Source: an uncultured Chloroflexia bacterium (GTDB lineage Bacteria > Chloroflexota > Limnocylindria > Limnocylindrales > CSP1-4). Taken from it: 64,000 nucleotides of DNA. Positions 9,637-60,340 of this stretch are shown here, piece after piece; positions within the stretch are counted from its first letter, which is position 1, and each line of letters begins with the position of its first letter. The stretch is taken from assembly GCA_963757055.1 (NCBI GenBank), contig CAVWPX010000008.1, positions 272,298 to 336,297 on the forward strand, written 5' to 3'. The translations under genes were made by a program, and so were the position numbers. The notes below the pieces were generated by a model. That model saw nothing but the letters and a program-made list of their open reading frames with translations. It did not search any database and was not told the origin of the DNA.

Positions 9637-11040
9637 ATGCGGCGGGTGGCCGTCGATCCGCCCGAACCCACCCCGCAGCATCACGACTCCAGGAAAGGGA
9701 CGACCCATGACGGCGACGAACGACACCGGACCGCCAGCATCCAGCCCAGGGAGCTCAGCGGCCGCATCGACGACGCGACCACGACCATCGTCGATGTCCG
9801 GCCGCTGCCCGCGTACAACGGCTGGCGACTCAACGACGAGGCGCGCGGCGGCCACATCCCGGGCGCGACGAGCTTCCCGGCCGCCTGGCTCGGCCGGGTG
9901 GACGACGCCGAGATCCGGCGCGATCTCGATGACAAGGGGATCACGCCGGACCGCTCGATCGTGCTCTACGGCGACGACGCCGCGCAGGCACGAGCCGTCG
10001 CGGACGGGCTGGCCAGGTTCGGCCTGACCGGGATCACGGTCCTCGAGGGCGGCTTCCCGGCCTGGGCCGCGGACGACAGCCCTGCCGATCGAGGGGCTCC
10101 CGCGCTACGACCGCCTCGTCTACACCGCGTGGCTGCGCGACCTGCTCGCGGGCGAGCGACCGGCGGCCTACGACAACGACAAGTACCTGCTGCTCCACGT
10201 CAACTTCGGGGTGCCCGAGGAGTACGAGGAGAACCATCTCCCCGGCGCGCTCTACCTCGACACCAACCGTCTCGAGGACCCGGCGGACTGGAACCGACGC
10301 TCCCCCGCGGAGATCGGGGCGACGCTCGAGGCGCTCGGGCATCGCGCACGACACGACGGTCGTGCTGTACGGCCGCGACACGGTCGGCGACGCGAACGAG
10401 AAATGGCCGGGTCGTCGTGCGGGCCAGATCGCGGCCGCCCGGGCGGCGCTGATCCTGAGCTACGCCGGCGTGACGGACGTCCGGATCCTCGACGGCGGCT
10501 ACGACGCGTGGGTCACCGACGGCTACCCGCTCGAGACCGTCATCCGCGAGCCCTCGCCGATCGCCGACTTCGGCGTCGCGATCCCGCAGCACCCCGAGTA
10601 CATCGTCGACATCGACGACGCCAAGGCGATCCTGGCCGACCAGGCCGGGGCGGCGCTCGTCAGCGTGCGGACGTGGCGCGAGCACATCGGCAACGTCAGC
10701 GGCTACAACTACATCGGCCCGGCCGGCCGGATCGCCGGCGACGTCTGGGGCAACTGCGGCACCGACGCGTACCACATGCAGCACTACCGCAACGTGGACA
10801 ACACGATGCGGGCGTATCCCGGAGATCGTCGCCAACTGGGCCGAGGCCGGGATCACCCGCGACAAGTGGGTCGCCTTCTACTGCGGGACCGGCTGGCGCG
10901 CCGCGGAGACGTGGTTCTACGCGTTCCTGCTCGACTGGCCGCGGATCGCGGTCTACGACGGCGGCTGGTTCGAATGGAGCCAGGACCCGATCAACAACCC
11001 GATCGAGATCGGGGAGCCCGAGGACGGCGTCACCGCCTGA
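9637..11040 (+). pseudogene. multi-domain rhodanese-type sulfurtransferase; three frame interruptions
   Basis: The segments are IQPRELSGRIDDATTTIVDVRPLPAYNGWRL..HIPGATSFP..VLEGGFPAWAADDS / LPIEGLPRYDRLVYTAWLRDLL..HLPGALYLDTNRLE..ATLEALG / IAHDTTVVLYGRD..ILDGGYDAWVTDGYPLE..HYRNVDNTMRAY / PEIVANWAEAGITRDKWVAFYCGTGWRAAETWFYAF (active-site Cys loop). The shifts fall at CCC 10080-82, GGG 10337-39 and CCC 10818-20. TGA at 11038-11040. Confidence 0.75.
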
Positions 11041-11136: not shown

Positions 11137-12669
11137 TCAGAGTCCGTTGGCGAGGTGGTAGTAGAGGTCGTTCCAGCGGAGCTGGTCGCGGAGCCGGTCG
11201 AGCCGGGTCTCCTCGTCGATCAGGACGAACTCGACCCGTGACATCGACGCGAAGTCCGCGAGGTGCTCGGGCGTGACCGCGTAGCCGAAGCCCGTGTGGT
11301 GCGAGCCGCCCGCGTAGATCCAGCCCGCGGCGTTGGTCGCGAGATCGGGCCGCGGCTTCCAGACGGCCCGCGCGACGGGCAGGCGCGGCAGCGGCTGCGG
11401 CGGGTCGATCACGTCCACGACGGTCGCCACCAGGCGGAACCGCGGGCCCATGTCCACGATCGAGGCGGCGACGGCCTGGCCCGGGTGCGCGTCGAACACG
11501 AGCCGGACCGGGTCGGCCTTGCCGCCGATCCCGAGGGGGTGGACCTCCAGCCGCGGCCGGCCCGCGGCGATCGACTCGCAGACCTCGAGCATGTGCGCCC
11601 CGAGGCTGAGGTCCCCGTCCGGGGTCATGTGATACGTGTAGTCCTCCATGAACGAGACGCCGCCCGGCAGGCCGCTCGACATCACCTTCATCGCGCGCAC
11701 CATCGCCGCGGTCTTCCAGTCGCCCTCGGCGCCGAACCCGTAGCCGTCGCGCATCAGCCGCTGGACGGCGAGGCCGGGCAGCTGGGTCATGCCGTGGAGG
11801 TCCTCGAAGGTCGTGGTGAACGTCGAGAACCCGCCGGCGTCGAGGAACCGGCGCAGGCCGATCTCGATCCTGGCCCCGTCGCGCAGCGAGTCGGCGCGCT
11901 CGGCACCGGGACGCAGGACCGGGTCGACGTCGTACTCGTCGAGGTACGTCGCGACGAGGGTGTCGACCTCGGCGTCGCTGCTCTCGGCGATGACCGCGAC
12001 GAGGTCGCCGACCCCGAAGGTGTCGACCCGGAAGCCGAGTCTGCGAGTGGCCTCCACCTTGTCGCCCTCGGTCACCGCGACGTCGCGCATGTTGTCGCCG
12101 AACCGGGCGATCCGCATCGTCTCCCAGTCGCGCTTCGCGGCGGCCGCCCGGGTCCAGGCCCCGACGCGCTCGTGGACCTCGGTCGTGGTCCAGTGGCCGG
12201 CCACGACCTTGTGCTCGATCCGCAGGCGGGCGGCCATGAACCCGAACTCCCGGTCGCCGTGGGCGGCCTGGTTGAGGTTCATGAAGTCCATGTCGATGGC
12301 GTCCCACGGGATCGCGCCGTGGTGCTGGGTGTGCAGGTGGAGGAGCGGCCGCTGGAGGGCCGTGAGCCCGCCGATCCACATCTTGGCCGGCGAGAACGTG
12401 TGCATCCAGGCGATGACGCCGATGCAGGCCGGGGTCGCGTTGGCCTCGAGGAACAGGGCGCGGATGCCGTCCGCATCGGTCACGACCGGCTTCGGGACCA
12501 CCCGGACCGGGATCGATGGCGCCGCGTCGAGCGCCGCGGCGACCTCGGTCGCGTGTGCCGCCACGGTCTCGAGCGTCTCCGGCCCGTAGAGGTGCTGGCT
12601 GCCGGTGACGAGCCACACCTCGTCCGTCCCGAGGTCGTGCATCGACGGACTCCTCGCCTCGCTGGTCAT
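11137..12669 (-). CDS. araA: L-arabinose isomerase
   Basis: 510 aa: [70 protein letters not shown] 12669 overlaps the araD stop (ATGA). Confidence 0.92.
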
Positions 12670-13506
12670 TGGCCGTACTCGGTCGTGTAGCGCCGGTGGA
12701 GCCGCTCGACGGCGTCGTCCGGGAGGGGTTCGGGCGTGCCGATCTGGAGCGCCGCCCAGACGGTCGCCGCGATGTCCTCGACCATCACCGCGGTCTTCAC
12801 CGCGGCCTCGGCAGAGGGACCCACCGTGAAGACGCCGTGCTGCTTGAGGGGTGGGGGTGTGTTTTTGTTGTTTGTTTTTTGTTGATTGGTTGTGGTGGAG
12901 CTGTGTGTTGGTTTCGTCGGGTAATGTTGGTGCCGATCTGGAGGGCCGCCCAGACGGTCGGCGGCGATGTCCTCGACCATGACGGCCGTCTTGACCGCGG
13001 CCTCGGCGGTCGGGCCGACCGTGAAGACGCCGTGCTGCTTGAGCAGGATCGCCGGGCTGTCGCCGAGGCCGTCGACCACGAGGGTCCCGATGGCCTCGTC
13101 GCCGATGAACGCGAAGTCCGCGCACGGGATCTCGGCACCGAACTCGTCCGCCTGGGCGGTCAGGTAGACCGGGATGGGGCGGCCCACGGCCGCGAAGGCC
13201 GTCGCGTAGCGCGAGTGCGTGTGCACCACGCCGTGCACGTCCGGCCGCGCGCGGTAGATGACGAGGTGGCTCGCGGTATCGGACGACGGCTTGTTCGTCC
13301 CCTCCACGATCGCGACCATCGAGGTCGAGCACGACCATCGACTCGGCCGTGAGGTCCTCGTAGCGGACGCCGGACGGCTTGATCGCGACGAGCCCGGTCT
13401 CGGGGTCGCGGACGCTCACGTTGCCGCCGGTCCAGACGACCAGCCCGTGGCGCGGGAGCTCCAGGTGGAGCCGGACGAGCTCCTCGCGGAGCGCCTCGAG
13501 CCGCAT
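12666..13506 (-). pseudogene. araD: L-ribulose-5-phosphate 4-epimerase; one frame interruption plus an in-frame internal duplication/insertion
   Basis: [59 protein letters not shown] from ATG 13506. One base on (about 13313) it continues [39 protein letters not shown]... The C-terminal [11 protein letters not shown](S/T)[16 protein letters not shown] segment is present twice, around a CA-rich linker. Confidence 0.8.
12736..13043. repeat. imperfect direct duplication (12736-12848 and 12930-13043; 11 mismatches plus 1 indel) flanking an 81-nt G+T tract (12849-12929)
   Basis: Read directly from the sequence. Both copies begin GTGCCGATCTGGAG and end GTGAAGACGCCGTGCTGCTTGAG. The tract between them contains 34 G, 40 T, 4 A and 3 C. 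Confidence 0.95.
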
Positions 13507-13507
13507 G

Positions 13508-15223
13508 TCAGGCCGGCACCGAGACGGGGACCGCCGGCGACATCGAGGCCTTGGCCTGCGCGCGGAGGCCGCGCAGGACCTTCATGACGTCGTTCTCGCC
13601 GCGGCCGAAGTAGTCGTGGAGGCGGACGTACTCACGGTAGAGGACCTCGTAGGCGTCGCGGTTCGCGGCGCTCGGCTCGTACACGACGTCCTTCAGCCGG
13701 GCCATCGCACGCGCCGCGTCCTCGATGGTGGCGTGGCCGCCGGCCGCCGCGCCGGCGGCGACCGCCCCGAACATCGCCGAGCCGAGCGCCGGGGTCTGGT
13801 CGGAGGCGCTGACGCGGAACGGGCGCCCGGTGACGTCCGCGTAGATCTGCAGCACCAGCGGGCTCTTCTCGGCCAGCCCGCCGCAGGCCACGATGTCGTG
13901 GACGGGGACGCCGTTGGCCTCGAGGGTCTCGATGATCACGCGCGTCCCGAACGCGGTCGCCTCGATCAGGGCCCGGTAGATCTCCTCGGGCGTGGTCGAG
14001 AGCGTCGCCCCGATCAGCAGGCCGCCGACCGCGGCGTCGACGAGGATCGAGCGGTTGCCGTTCCACCAGTCGAGCGCCAGCAGCCCGGACTCGCCCGCGA
14101 CCTGCCGGCCGGCCTTCTCCTGGAGCAGCTCGTGGATGTCGATGCCGCGGGCGCGCGCCTCGTCGTGGTACGCGGCTCGGCAGCCCCTGGTCGACGAACC
14201 AGCCGAAGTGGTCGCCGACGCACGACTGTCCGGCCTCATAGCCGATCAGACCGGGGATGATCCCGTCCTCGACGCGGCCGCACATCCCGGGCACCGTCCG
14301 CTCGTCCGGGCGCGAGGACCATGTGGCACGTGGAGGTGCCCATGATCATGACCATCGTGCCGGGCTCGGTGACCGTCGCGGCCGGCACGGCCACGTGGGC
14401 GTCGACATTGGCCACCGCGACCGCGGTCCCGGGCAGCAGGCCCGTCCAGGCCGCGGCCTCGGCCGAGAGCCCGCCGGCCCGCTCGCCGGCCTGGCGCAGG
14501 TCCCGGCGCATCTTCGTGTCGACGACATCGGCGAAGGCCGGGTCGAGGGCGCCGAAGTAGGCCGCCGTCGGGGAAGCCGTCGCGCTTCGACCACATCGCC
14601 TTGTAGCCCGCCGTGCAGGCGTTCCGGGTCTCGACCCCGGTCAGCTGCCAGACGATCCAGTCGGTCGCCTCGAGGAGGCGGTCCGCGGCGGCGTAGACCT
14701 CCGGCGCCTCGTCGAGGATCTGGAGGGCCTTCGCGAAGAACCACTCCGACGAGATCTTCCCGCCGTAGCGGTCCAGCCAGTCCTGCCCGGTCGCCCGCGC
14801 GACTTCGTTGATGCGGTCCGCCTCGGGCTGCGCGGCGTGGTGCTTCCAGAGCTTGACCCAGGCGTGCGGGTTCGAGCGGAAGGCCGGGAGCATCGAGAGG
14901 GCGGTGCCGTCGGCGGTCGCGGGGAGCATCGTGCACGCCGTCACGTCGACCCCGATGCCGATGATGTCGGCGGGGTCCACGGCGGCCTCGCGGATCACCG
15001 CCGGGACGGCGGTCTTGAGCACGTCGAGGTAGTCGTCGGCGTCCTGGAGCGCCCAGTCGGGCGGCAGGACCACGTCCTGGTCCGGGGCGGGGAGCCGCTC
15101 GTCGATGACGCCGCTGCGGTACGGCGTGACCGACGTCGCGAGCTGCCGGCCGTCGGCGACGTCGACGAGCACGGCGCGCCCGGACTCGGTGCCGAAATCG
15201 ACGCCGATCGCGTACTTGGTCAT
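13508..15223 (-). pseudogene. araB: ribulokinase (FGGY family); three frame interruptions
   Basis: The segments are MTKYAIGVDFGTESGRAVLVD..KLWKHHAAQPEADRIN..TAGYKAMWSKRDGFP / ..[35 protein letters not shown] / [39 protein letters not shown] / [40 protein letters not shown]. They lie in successive frames (about 14575, 14300, 14185). Stop at 13508. Confidence 0.8.
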
Positions 15224-15267
15224 GGCTGGCTGGTCCCTCGGTCTCGCGATGACGTGCTGCGGGTGGC

Positions 15268-15291
15268 CCGTTATCGTTCCCGTTATCGTTC
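15268..15291. promoter_or_regulatory. tandem 12-mer CCGTTATCGTTC x2 in the araB / regulator divergent intergenic region (candidate operator)
   Basis: Two perfect adjacent copies lie 8 nt upstream of the regulator ATG 15299 and 45 nt from araB ATG 15223. Confidence 0.4.
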
Positions 15292-15298
15292 ACGGACG

Positions 15299-16465
15299 AT
15301 GCTACCCTACGACGCCATGGCAAGGGAACCGACCCCAGCCGGGCACGGGATCACCATCCGCGAGATCGCGCGGATGTGCGGCGTCTCCACCCAGACCGTC
15401 TCGCGCGTCATCAACGAGCGGCCGGACGTGTCGCGCGAGACCCGCCTGGCGGTGGAGGCGGCCATCGCCGCGACCGGGTTCCGGCCGAGCGCCGTCGCGC
15501 GAAGCCTCGTCCAGCGTCGCTCGCGCACGCTCGGCGTCGTCGTCGCCGGCCTGCGCTACTTCGGCGTCGCCCAGACGCTCAACGGCATCACCGAGGAGGC
15601 GCAGGCGGCCGGCTACGGCGTCCTGCTCAAGGAGATCGAGAGCACGGAGACCGTCGACATCGCGCCGGTCATCGAGTTCATGATCGCGCACCGCGTCGAG
15701 GCGATCATCTTCGCCGCGCCCGCAGCTGGGGACGAACATCGCCCGGGTCCGCTCGCAGCTGCCGACCGCGTCGCCGCCGACCATCTTCCTGAAGTCCGAG
15801 CCGTCGCCGGACCACTCGACGATCCTGATCGACAACCGCGACGGCGCCCGGCAGGCGACGGCGCACCTGCTCGCCCTCGGCCGCCGCCGGATCGGGCACA
15901 TCGCCGGCCCGGCGCCATGGAGCGAGGCACGGGACCGCCAGGACGGCTGGAGCGCGACGCTCCGAGATGCGGGCGTCGAGCCGGGACCGGTCGTCGCCGG
16001 CGACTGGTCTCCGGCGAGCGGCGAAGCGGCCTTCGAGCGGATGCTGGCTGTGGCCCCCGACATCGACGGCATCTTCGTGGCGAACGACCAGATGGCGCTC
16101 GGCGTCATCCGTGCGGCGCACGCCCGCGGGATCGCGATCCCCGATGCCATCGCGATCGTCGGCTTCGACGGGCTCGACGAGGCCGCCCACATCACCCCGT
16201 CGCTCACGACCGTCGTCCAGCCGCTCTACGAGCTCGGCGAGCTCGGCGTCCGCGAGGTGCTGGCGGTCGCCAACGAGCGCGTCCGGTCCCGGCGCCGTCC
16301 GCAGCCTGACGCTCTCGACCCAGCTCGTGATCCGCGAGAGCGCACCGGCGATCGCCACGGCGGCGTCCGAGCTCCCCGAGGGGCAGGACCCGCGACCGCG
16401 CCATCGACATCGCCGGCCAGGAGGGGCATCCTCTCCCCGACGGCCGTCGCGGCCGTGTCGGATGA
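15299..16465 (+). pseudogene. LacI-family transcriptional regulator (likely arabinose regulator); three frame interruptions
   Basis: HTH: ITIREIARMCGVSTQTVSRVINERPDVSRETRLAVEAAIAATGFRPSAVARSL. The sugar-binding core RIGHIAGPAPWSEARDRQDGW..IFVANDQMALGVIRAAHARGIAIPDAIAIVGFD and the tail LTLSTQLVIRES are in successive +1 frames (about 15722, 16285, 16390). The end at TGA 16463-16465 is inferred from GC3 only. Confidence 0.7.
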
Positions 16466-42936: not shown

Positions 42937-43764
42937 TCAGTCGAGCGTGGCCGATAGCTTGATGCTGTCGACGACCGGCTGCGCGATCGGGGCGAACGTC
43001 GTCGCGTCGACGACGTTGTAGACGATGTACAGCATGTGAGGCCCGTCGCCGATCTGCGCCAGGAACAGCCGCGTCTTCATGTCGCTCGCGATCGCCCACG
43101 GTTCATGAAACTCCGGGAACGTGAAGATCGCGGCGCAGGCGCGCGTGGGGCAGCCTGGGTCACCGTTCGGCGCGTCTTCTGCGACGGCGATATCCATCGC
43201 AAGCGCAGGGAGCTTGCCCTCACCGATAGTCGTCTGCGTGGCCGGCGAGACCGTGAGCTCGCGGACACCATGCAGCCACTCGCTGACGGCGCTTGGCGTG
43301 TTGGCCACCCCCGCGACCGGTTTGCCGTCCCAGGTGACCGGGCTCATGTCGAGCCAGAACACGATCGAGTCGCCTTCTCCGTGGGTGCCGGCGACGTCCA
43401 ACGCGAACTCCCCCGTGCTGTCCTCGTGGCTGGACCATCTGTCGTTGAGCGTCACCGTCAATCCGCCTGGGTAGAAGTTCACCGTCGTGTACTTCCCGGC
43501 TGGCAGCGCGCCAGGCTGGGTGAGCGCGGGCGGTTGCATCCGCATGAGGAGGCAGGCGGGACTGCACGAGGGCGTCGGGGCGGAGGCTGACGGTCGTGCG
43601 GCCTGGGTCGCCACGGCGCTGGCGACCGCGGGCGACGAGGGCGCCGGGAGGCTCGCGACCGCGGGTGACGAAGGCGCCGGGAGGCTGGCGGCGGGACTGG
43701 CACAGGCCGTTGCGAGCAGCGCGATCAGCGTCGCGACGCGCCAGCGTGACTCGAGATGACGCAT
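42937..43764 (-). CDS. secreted (lipo)protein, unknown function
   Basis: Signal peptide MRHLESRWRVATLIALLATAC. Tandem ASLPAPSSPAV x2 linker. 275 aa. Confidence 0.7.
   Translation of the reverse strand: MRHLESRWRVATLIALLATACASPAASLPAPSSPAVASLPAPSSPAVASAVATQAARPSASAPTPSCSPACLLMRMQPPALTQPGALPAGKYTTVNFYPGGLTVTLNDRWSSHEDSTGEFALDVAGTHGEGDSIVFWLDMSPVTWDGKPVAGVANTPSAVSEWLHGVRELTVSPATQTTIGEGKLPALAMDIAVAEDAPNGDPGCPTRACAAIFTFPEFHEPWAIASDMKTRLFLAQIGDGPHMLYIVYNVVDATTFAPIAQPVVDSIKLSATLD
43622..43687. repeat. 33-bp tandem repeat x2 inside the lipoprotein gene
   Basis: GCGACCGCGGG(C/T)GACGA(G/A)GGCGCCGGGAGGCT(C/G) appears twice, with three differing positions. It encodes the repeated ASLPAPSSPAV. Confidence 0.9.
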
Positions 43765-60265: not shown

Positions 60266-60340
60266 TGGAGCCGACACTCGGACTTGAACCGAGGACCTGC
60301 TGTTTACGAAACAGCTGCTCTACCACTGAGCTATGTCGGC
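60266..60340 (-). tRNA. tRNA-Thr (anticodon CGT)
   Basis: I folded this by hand. The acceptor GCCGACA/TGTCGGC has 7 of 7 pairs. D arm is GCTC-AGTGGTA-GAGC. The anticodon stem GCTGT/ACAGC carries the loop TTCGTAA. T arm is CTCGG-TTCAAGT-CCGAG. Discriminator T is followed by an encoded CCA. Confidence 0.93.

Follow-up and report, generated by a model that had tools for sequence, protein, structure and literature searches.

Why does a single araD gene appear to end twice? In the stretch of DNA analysed here (64,000 nt of a 341,850-nt contig from a Chloroflexota metagenome, hereafter the window), the 3' part of araD occurs as two diverged direct repeats, separated by a tract that is nearly free of cytosine on the forward strand. 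Such an arrangement might record an unusual event in a bacterial cell, or it might have been produced on the way from reads to contig. The comparisons described below make it highly probable that the araD duplication and its tract came about through an error of assembly and base-calling that left two overlapping haplotypes uncollapsed, together with a miscalled read segment. The duplicated araD end is most likely not a real gene feature.

The repeated araD end and its reading frame

Realignment confirmed the originally predicted repeat, of 113 nt in copy A against 114 nt in copy B; the two differ by 11 mismatches and by the single base that copy B has in excess (coordinates in Table 1). This pair is the sole close direct repeat of at least 40 nt within the 64-kb window. 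Nine of the 11 differences fall at codon position 3, and by type they are G/C (8), T/C (2) and T/A (1), in agreement with the prediction of mostly third-position G/C swaps. If the extra base is placed synonymously, a single Ser/Thr codon is the only protein change between the copies.

Table 1. Positions of the ara genes, the two araD copies and the intervening tract in the window
Feature	Position	Strand	Remarks
araA (L-arabinose isomerase)	11137..12642	-	intact, 501 aa; clean sequence left of junction
araD (L-ribulose-5-phosphate 4-epimerase, Aldolase_II)	12666..13506	-	three frames as assembled; 3' part present twice
Copy A	12736..12848	-	araD codons ~157-194; adjoins normal araD 3' end (12666-12735) and araA
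81-nt tract	12849..12929	-	G+T on + strand, C+A on coding strand
Copy B	12930..13043	-	araD codons ~157-194; adjoins araD body; extra base at ~12959-12961
+1 insertion (A)	13310	-	frameshifts araD; absent from L001, L082, L084, L090 and L091
araB (ribulokinase)	13508..15223	-	split by window-specific +1 insertions at ~14566, 14311 and 14177
lacI-type regulator	~15.3-16.3 kb	divergent from ara genes	Pfam; split

The two copies are only ~90% identical to each other, whereas each is 93-96% identical to real alleles of related loci (L088, L089, L087): copy A shows 93.8% identity to the L088 allele and 92.9% to L087, and copy B 94.7% to L088 and 95.6% to L089. At the variable sites each copy is a mosaic of states found among relatives. 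Since the differences between the copies lie almost entirely at synonymous third positions, copies A and B are, judged by their sequences, two natural alleles, which is what the original prediction had proposed in calling them diverged alleles. Divergence filtered by selection cannot follow a duplication inside a broken gene. With two haplotypes represented in the duplicated segments, a simple duplication is excluded. A tandem duplication by replication slippage was rejected on the same grounds, the ~10% divergence being nearly all synonymous and the two units tracking different natural alleles. Elsewhere in the window we noted a 33-nt tandem repeat at 43618-43690 (2.2 copies, 90% matches) and a (CTTCGG) repeat at 2210-2238 (4.8 copies).

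The reading frame of araD was mapped by tblastn with the AraD proteins of L001 and L002. AraD residues 3-67 correspond to 13506-13312 in frame -2, residues 68-184 to 13310-12960 in frame -3, and residues 185-194 to 12958-12929 in frame -1; residues 157-216 then reappear beyond the tract, at 12848-12669. The insertion at 13310 cuts the first 65 araD codons (13506-13312) off from the remainder. An open reading frame of 217 aa (12666..13319), which starts at an internal ATG, does run through copy B, the linker and copy A as had been predicted, but the accompanying claim that araD stays in frame does not survive the insertion at 13310, and similar single-base insertions also riddle araB, lacI and other genes. 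With only 4 T on its coding strand, the linker contains no stop codon in any of its three frames. An open linker is expected from this composition, and the open frame is therefore unremarkable; its continuity depends only on the 195-nt (65 x 3) spacing of the copies, a 1-in-3 chance.

Several other observations concern the same locus. A longer open reading frame of 789 aa (11137-13506, minus strand), reaching from the araD start to the araA stop, consists of araA and an out-of-frame read-through of araD; it is no gene and is open owing to the high G+C content. A window-specific insertion of 12 nt that keeps the frame (TCGATGTCGCCG) lies at 13535-13546, where the C-terminal tail of araB is variable, and has the look of natural variation in length. 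The araB-lacI intergenic region differs from that of relatives by several multi-base indels. At 15267-15291 in this region a 12-nt unit (CCCGTTATCGTT) is repeated exactly in tandem (2.1 copies), and may be an operator for the LacI-type regulator.

The tract between the copies

On the forward strand the tract comprises 34 G, 40 T, 4 A and 3 C. Elsewhere in the 64 kb an 81-nt window holds 28.1 +/- 3.8 C; the minimum of 3 occurs only at the tract, and the maximum of T in the same scan (41) is reached there as well. The C depletion on which the original prediction was built is therefore real, and extreme for the window.

The origin of the tract became visible only when the alignment was anchored in register, or when the L088 allele was used as the template. 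In the anchored test the alignment was fixed at the copy-B end and coding-strand G>A was tolerated. Over its first 35 nt the tract scored 15.5 against the native araD continuation, compared with 5.4 +/- 3.0 in the null, of which a fraction of 0.0008 scored as high; for the first 50 nt this fraction was 0.008. When both strands of the window were searched without an anchor and with C and T treated as equal, the native site scored 32 against a mean of 26.2 +/- 3.7, which is not significant (rank ~935 of 12,728). The anchored result over 35 nt supports the proposal that the tract is a degenerate, C>T-changed copy of the araD 3' end. The allele that it follows is not the one found after copy A. 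Over its first 40 nt the tract scored 26.5 against the L088 allele (the stretch CCCTTGCCCGACGAGGCC..GTCGCGCGGCTCCACC); the sequence that follows copy A gave 16.5, and nine further alleles gave 14.5-19. It tracks the L088-type allele (CCCTTGCCCGACGAGGCC..GTCGCGCGG) and not the window's own continuation. On this evidence the tract carries on the copy-B allele in register, though in degraded form, from the 3' end of araD roughly as far as the araA start.

Aligned to L088, the tract covers ~100 nt of template, reaching approximately the araA start, with ~19 nt deleted. On the coding strand G>A accounts for 22 of the 32 non-identical aligned positions, the other 10 being different substitutions, and 27 of 30 G are lost without preference for sequence context. 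Counted outward from copy B in thirds of 27 nt, G>A changes number 7, 6 and 9, and other errors 2, 2 and 6. All three retained G lie within the first 29 nt from copy B, and the last third has no T. Read along the + strand, the sequence is near-garbage at 12849 and improves until it is perfect at 12930, a gradient that resembles a decaying base-call more than deamination.

The original prediction had called for a search for further C-depleted tracts. The 64-kb window has no further tract depleted in C or G, and 816 kb of related loci yielded none of the sort. The one loosely similar tract among the related loci is a C-depleted, G+T-rich stretch of 70 nt at 9630-9699 of L071 (29 G, 25 T, 14 A, 2 C); it has no flanking duplication, and its contig belongs to an Anaerolineae MAG with a SPAdes-style name ('NODE_'). 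The possibility that the tract is a structured RNA or has some other function was also rejected: Rfam gave no match in the tract region, and the predicted fold is not more stable than that of shuffled sequences (z-score +1.57; 193 of 200 shuffles fold as well or better). A tRNA gene at 60269-60340 on the minus strand is the sole Rfam match at gathering score in the window. An adapter or linker origin was rejected as well. Local alignments to adapter sequences (ONT LSK109/LSK114, the rapid transposase adapter, barcode flanks, SMRTbell, Nextera and TruSeq) were no better than those of composition-matched shuffles (p = 0.19-1.0).

Related loci and the surrounding consensus

The nearest genomes are uncultured Chloroflexota/Limnocylindrales MAGs, many of which have 'MFD' isolate names. 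In all of the ~30 relatives in which araD and araA are neighbours, both halves of the window structure map to overlapping coordinates of one copy, the overlap being 113 nt in subject coordinates, and the 81-nt tract matches nothing in these loci. Copy A aligns with the single araD copy of every relative examined. The gene is likewise single in L081-L084 (JGI), in L086 and L087 (ENA) and in L088-L091; the last four are 95.6, 95.3, 92.0 and 89.1% identical in DNA to the window on the araA side, and lie on contigs of at most 7.2 kb, of which only that of L088 has a short-read-style (MEGAHIT-like) name. Intact genes for LacI (363-371 aa), AraB (566-567 aa, FGGY kinase), AraD (214-216 aa, Aldolase_II) and AraA are present in L081-L082 and L090-L091, and the rhodanese protein of L091 (443 aa) is intact as well. 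The structure was found nowhere outside the source contig, either in the relatives examined or in a collection of ~15 billion proteins, where the 217-aa linker ORF forms a one-member cluster from one contig. A 31-mer from the tract was absent from JGI metagenome contigs.

A wholesale chimera of two 10%-diverged genomes is not supported at the kilobase scale, as sliding-window identity to L087 and L086 shows no kb-scale step at the junction. The haplotype difference is visible only in the ~150 nt that are present twice.

The consensus around araD contains further anomalies. Multiple alignments with relatives revealed at least 10 window-specific +1 insertions, at 10340, 10822, 11052, 12959-12961, 13310, 14177, 14311, 14566, 15718 and 16274-16278; at least 8 of them fall in araB, lacI and a rhodanese gene. 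In these alignments all small indels within genes are +1 insertions and single-base deletions are lacking; araA itself has no window-specific indel. By Pfam, the genes for LacI, a rhodanese protein and a GFO/IDH/MocA oxidoreductase (the last at ~50.11-50.14 kb) are split. At 10340, 10822 and 12959 the inserted base falls at a site that is G/C-polymorphic among relatives, and the window holds both alleles side by side, from which we infer the signature of a mixed-strain consensus.

It could be argued that the ara operon is a true pseudogene cluster. The in-frame pieces of AraB and AraD are 91-100% identical to L001, compared with 92% for the intact AraA; the broken pieces are as conserved as the intact protein, and the interruptions are therefore errors and not gene decay. 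True pseudogenisation was rejected for this reason and also because only +1 insertions occur in the genes, unrelated genes of the window are broken too, and sister assemblies break elsewhere while other relatives are intact. Among those sister assemblies, L085-L087, which are independent ENA records and the closest long relatives (ERZ250395xx, with Flye-style names, 'contig_N'), have a split araB, araD, araA or lacI, at positions that differ from those in the window. In a separate observation, the araD genes of the independent assemblies L086 (~5670) and L087 (~4896) have in common an extra C (ATCGG[C]GACGC) that is absent from L088-L091 and from other aligned relatives; the shared base may reflect a systematic base-calling error tied to local context, such as a methylation motif.

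Origin of the structure and its known parallels

We propose that the structure arose when a contig was built from a strain mixture. The source contig most likely represents a consensus of long reads that came from two or more related, co-occurring strains. A ~210-nt overlap of two haplotypes, extending from araD codon ~157 to about the araA start, would have been concatenated and not merged. The haplotype running into araA would have given copy A and the normal gene end, and the haplotype with the araD body and araB would have given copy B. The tract would then be the remaining ~100 nt of the copy-B haplotype, badly called, forming a poor first part on the + strand in which bases drifted to T/G (A/C on the coding strand) and some were dropped. 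A mixed-strain consensus join of this kind would explain by one cause the single copy elsewhere, the two haplotypes in series, the decaying spacer and the insertions that retain both alleles. Of the causes originally put forward, a chimeric or mis-basecalled assembly junction had been named third; it is the one favoured by the single copy in relatives, the alleles, the error gradient and the local insertions.

Several relatives belong, by their 'MFD' names, to the Microflora Danica MAGs, and the window likely comes from such data. For that long-read catalogue, Nanopore reads were assembled by metaFlye and polished once with Medaka, with no short-read polishing (PMC12313526). The platform behind the window, the exact software step behind the join and an absence of read support for it are what we infer. 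Some points speak against an artefact. A polisher such as Medaka usually deletes a 195-nt insertion when many reads show it as a gap, and for this one to survive, local coverage must have been low or ambiguous. The tract is unlike ONT, PacBio or Illumina adapters, there is no kb-scale identity step to L087/L086 across the junction, and no second such tract, which would make this a recurrent class of artefact, occurs in the window or in the 816 kb of related loci. To our knowledge, no C>T-biased miscall of ordinary non-repetitive sequence has been documented.

The main alternative places the change in the cell: a real tandem duplication or illegitimate-recombination junction in araD, at which exposed single-stranded DNA was hit by cytosine deamination, through a DNA deaminase or spontaneous decay, or resynthesised with C->T changes. 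That the tract matches the araD 3' end in register fits this, as do the predominance of G>A and the fact that the change is strand-coordinated and densest beside 12848/12849; moreover, as assembled the operon is already non-functional, so that a null allele would be tolerable. We nevertheless consider it quite unlikely. The near-total conversion without context preference differs from known deaminase clusters, which alter a minority of C. The non-C>T substitutions and the ~19 nt of deletions, both growing toward the junction, are not deamination products and tell against cytosine deamination as the cause that had originally been suggested. Since the duplicated segments are different haplotypes, an import of foreign DNA would be needed in addition; the structure is absent from every other assembly examined, and the nearby frameshifts look like consensus errors, not decay. 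The narrower claim that the structure existed in the cell, where ~100 nt of single strand, either exposed or newly made, at a break-induced duplication or recombination junction in araD lost nearly all its cytosines, strikes us as very improbable; a processive DNA cytosine deaminase, or synthesis under dCTP depletion, would be its cause.

A recombination scar, for which we likewise see a very slim chance, would have been left by a related-strain fragment carrying araB, araD and copy B that entered by homology on one side and by an illegitimate join on the other. That the copies are two natural alleles, that the tract follows the allele type of the independent contig L088, and that the community contains several related lineages of 88-99% identity all agree with such a scar. 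Its particulars, namely ~210 nt duplicated and a tract that is real but was later mutated, or is filler DNA, are just as improbable, and they leave the extreme composition of the tract without explanation. No identity step to L087/L086 is seen on either side of the junction, the structure is private to one contig, a scar would need several independent rare events, and the many small insertions on the same contig that keep both alleles point to a consensus problem. Least probable of all is that a single molecule was read twice, its strand stalling in the pore, being pushed back by ~200 nt and read again, after which polishing by reads of another strain would have set the copies apart. The direct orientation, the short spacing, garbage exactly between the copies and the gradient of call quality would be natural outcomes of a re-read, and so would a raw-looking +1 insertion in copy B beside a clean copy A. 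However, the allele of the tract differs from the sequence after copy A, which polishing of the good copy alone cannot account for. We know of no documented instance of a stalled, pushed-back strand being re-read.

In this lineage araD is an ordinary gene present once and, read as an assembly join, the structure has no importance as biology. Its practical worth lies in showing what a long-read consensus of a mixed-strain metagenome can contain: both alleles of a SNP kept as single-base insertions, and a block of ~200 nt kept twice with a strand-biased miscalled stretch between. From such sequence gene callers yield a plausible 217-aa 'fusion' ORF, which is now a singleton in public protein collections. 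Anyone searching such assemblies for gene fusions, hypermutation tracts or novel repeats has to filter this pattern out. If, on the other hand, the structure were real, it would document one of the rare natural cases in which cytosines were lost in a cluster, from one strand only, beside a rearrangement junction in bacteria, and in-cell loss would make it a bacterial counterpart of kataegis, caught in a natural population of soil Chloroflexota.

Kataegis, known from cancer genomics, consists of strand-coordinated C>T clusters at rearrangement breakpoints, made by cytosine deaminases acting on single-stranded DNA. The tract resembles it in adjoining a structural junction, in being strand-coordinated and in having its highest density there. 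Unlike kataegis, conversion here is near-complete regardless of context and is joined by many other substitutions and deletions; there is no second cluster in 64 kb, and the structure lies on one error-prone contig only. Hypermutation of this type, by which only C>T (G>A) would be expected, was rejected on the 22 G>A, 10 other substitutions and ~19 nt deleted. A diversity-generating retroelement also has two diverged direct repeats (TR/VR), one of them at a gene 3' end. There the differences fall at template adenines, whereas here 8 of 11 are G/C swaps and the spacer is degraded; none of the differences (G/C, T/C or T/A) fits A-to-N mutagenesis, and this candidate was rejected too.

Closer parallels come from sequencing itself. 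In their treatment of telomere repeats, Tan et al. 2022 (Genome Biol 23:180, PMC9414165) report long strand-specific nanopore miscalls. The tract has in common with that case a block of systematic miscalls on one strand in place of scattered random errors. The published case concerns long repeats with ambiguous current, whereas here the sequence is unique and coding, deletions occur as well and worsen along the tract, and the nanopore source is presumed. The telomere miscalls reportedly include G>A blocks, with (TTAGGG)n read as (TTAAAA)n, a direction that would be the one seen here on the coding strand.

The false 'heterotype' duplications of genome assemblies, in which two haplotypes are said to stand in series, often beside a gap or junk, offer a further comparison. 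They differ in that the mixture here is one of bacterial strains in a metagenome and not a diploid genome, that the unit is only ~210 nt, and that the spacer is a degraded self copy and not a run of N. What the two have in common is a tandem locus with allele-like copies (~10% diverged, synonymous), an unalignable spacer, and an assembly made from a haplotype mixture. A single copy in relatives, allele-like differences between the copies and other signs of a poor consensus are all found at this araD locus, as they are at such duplications.
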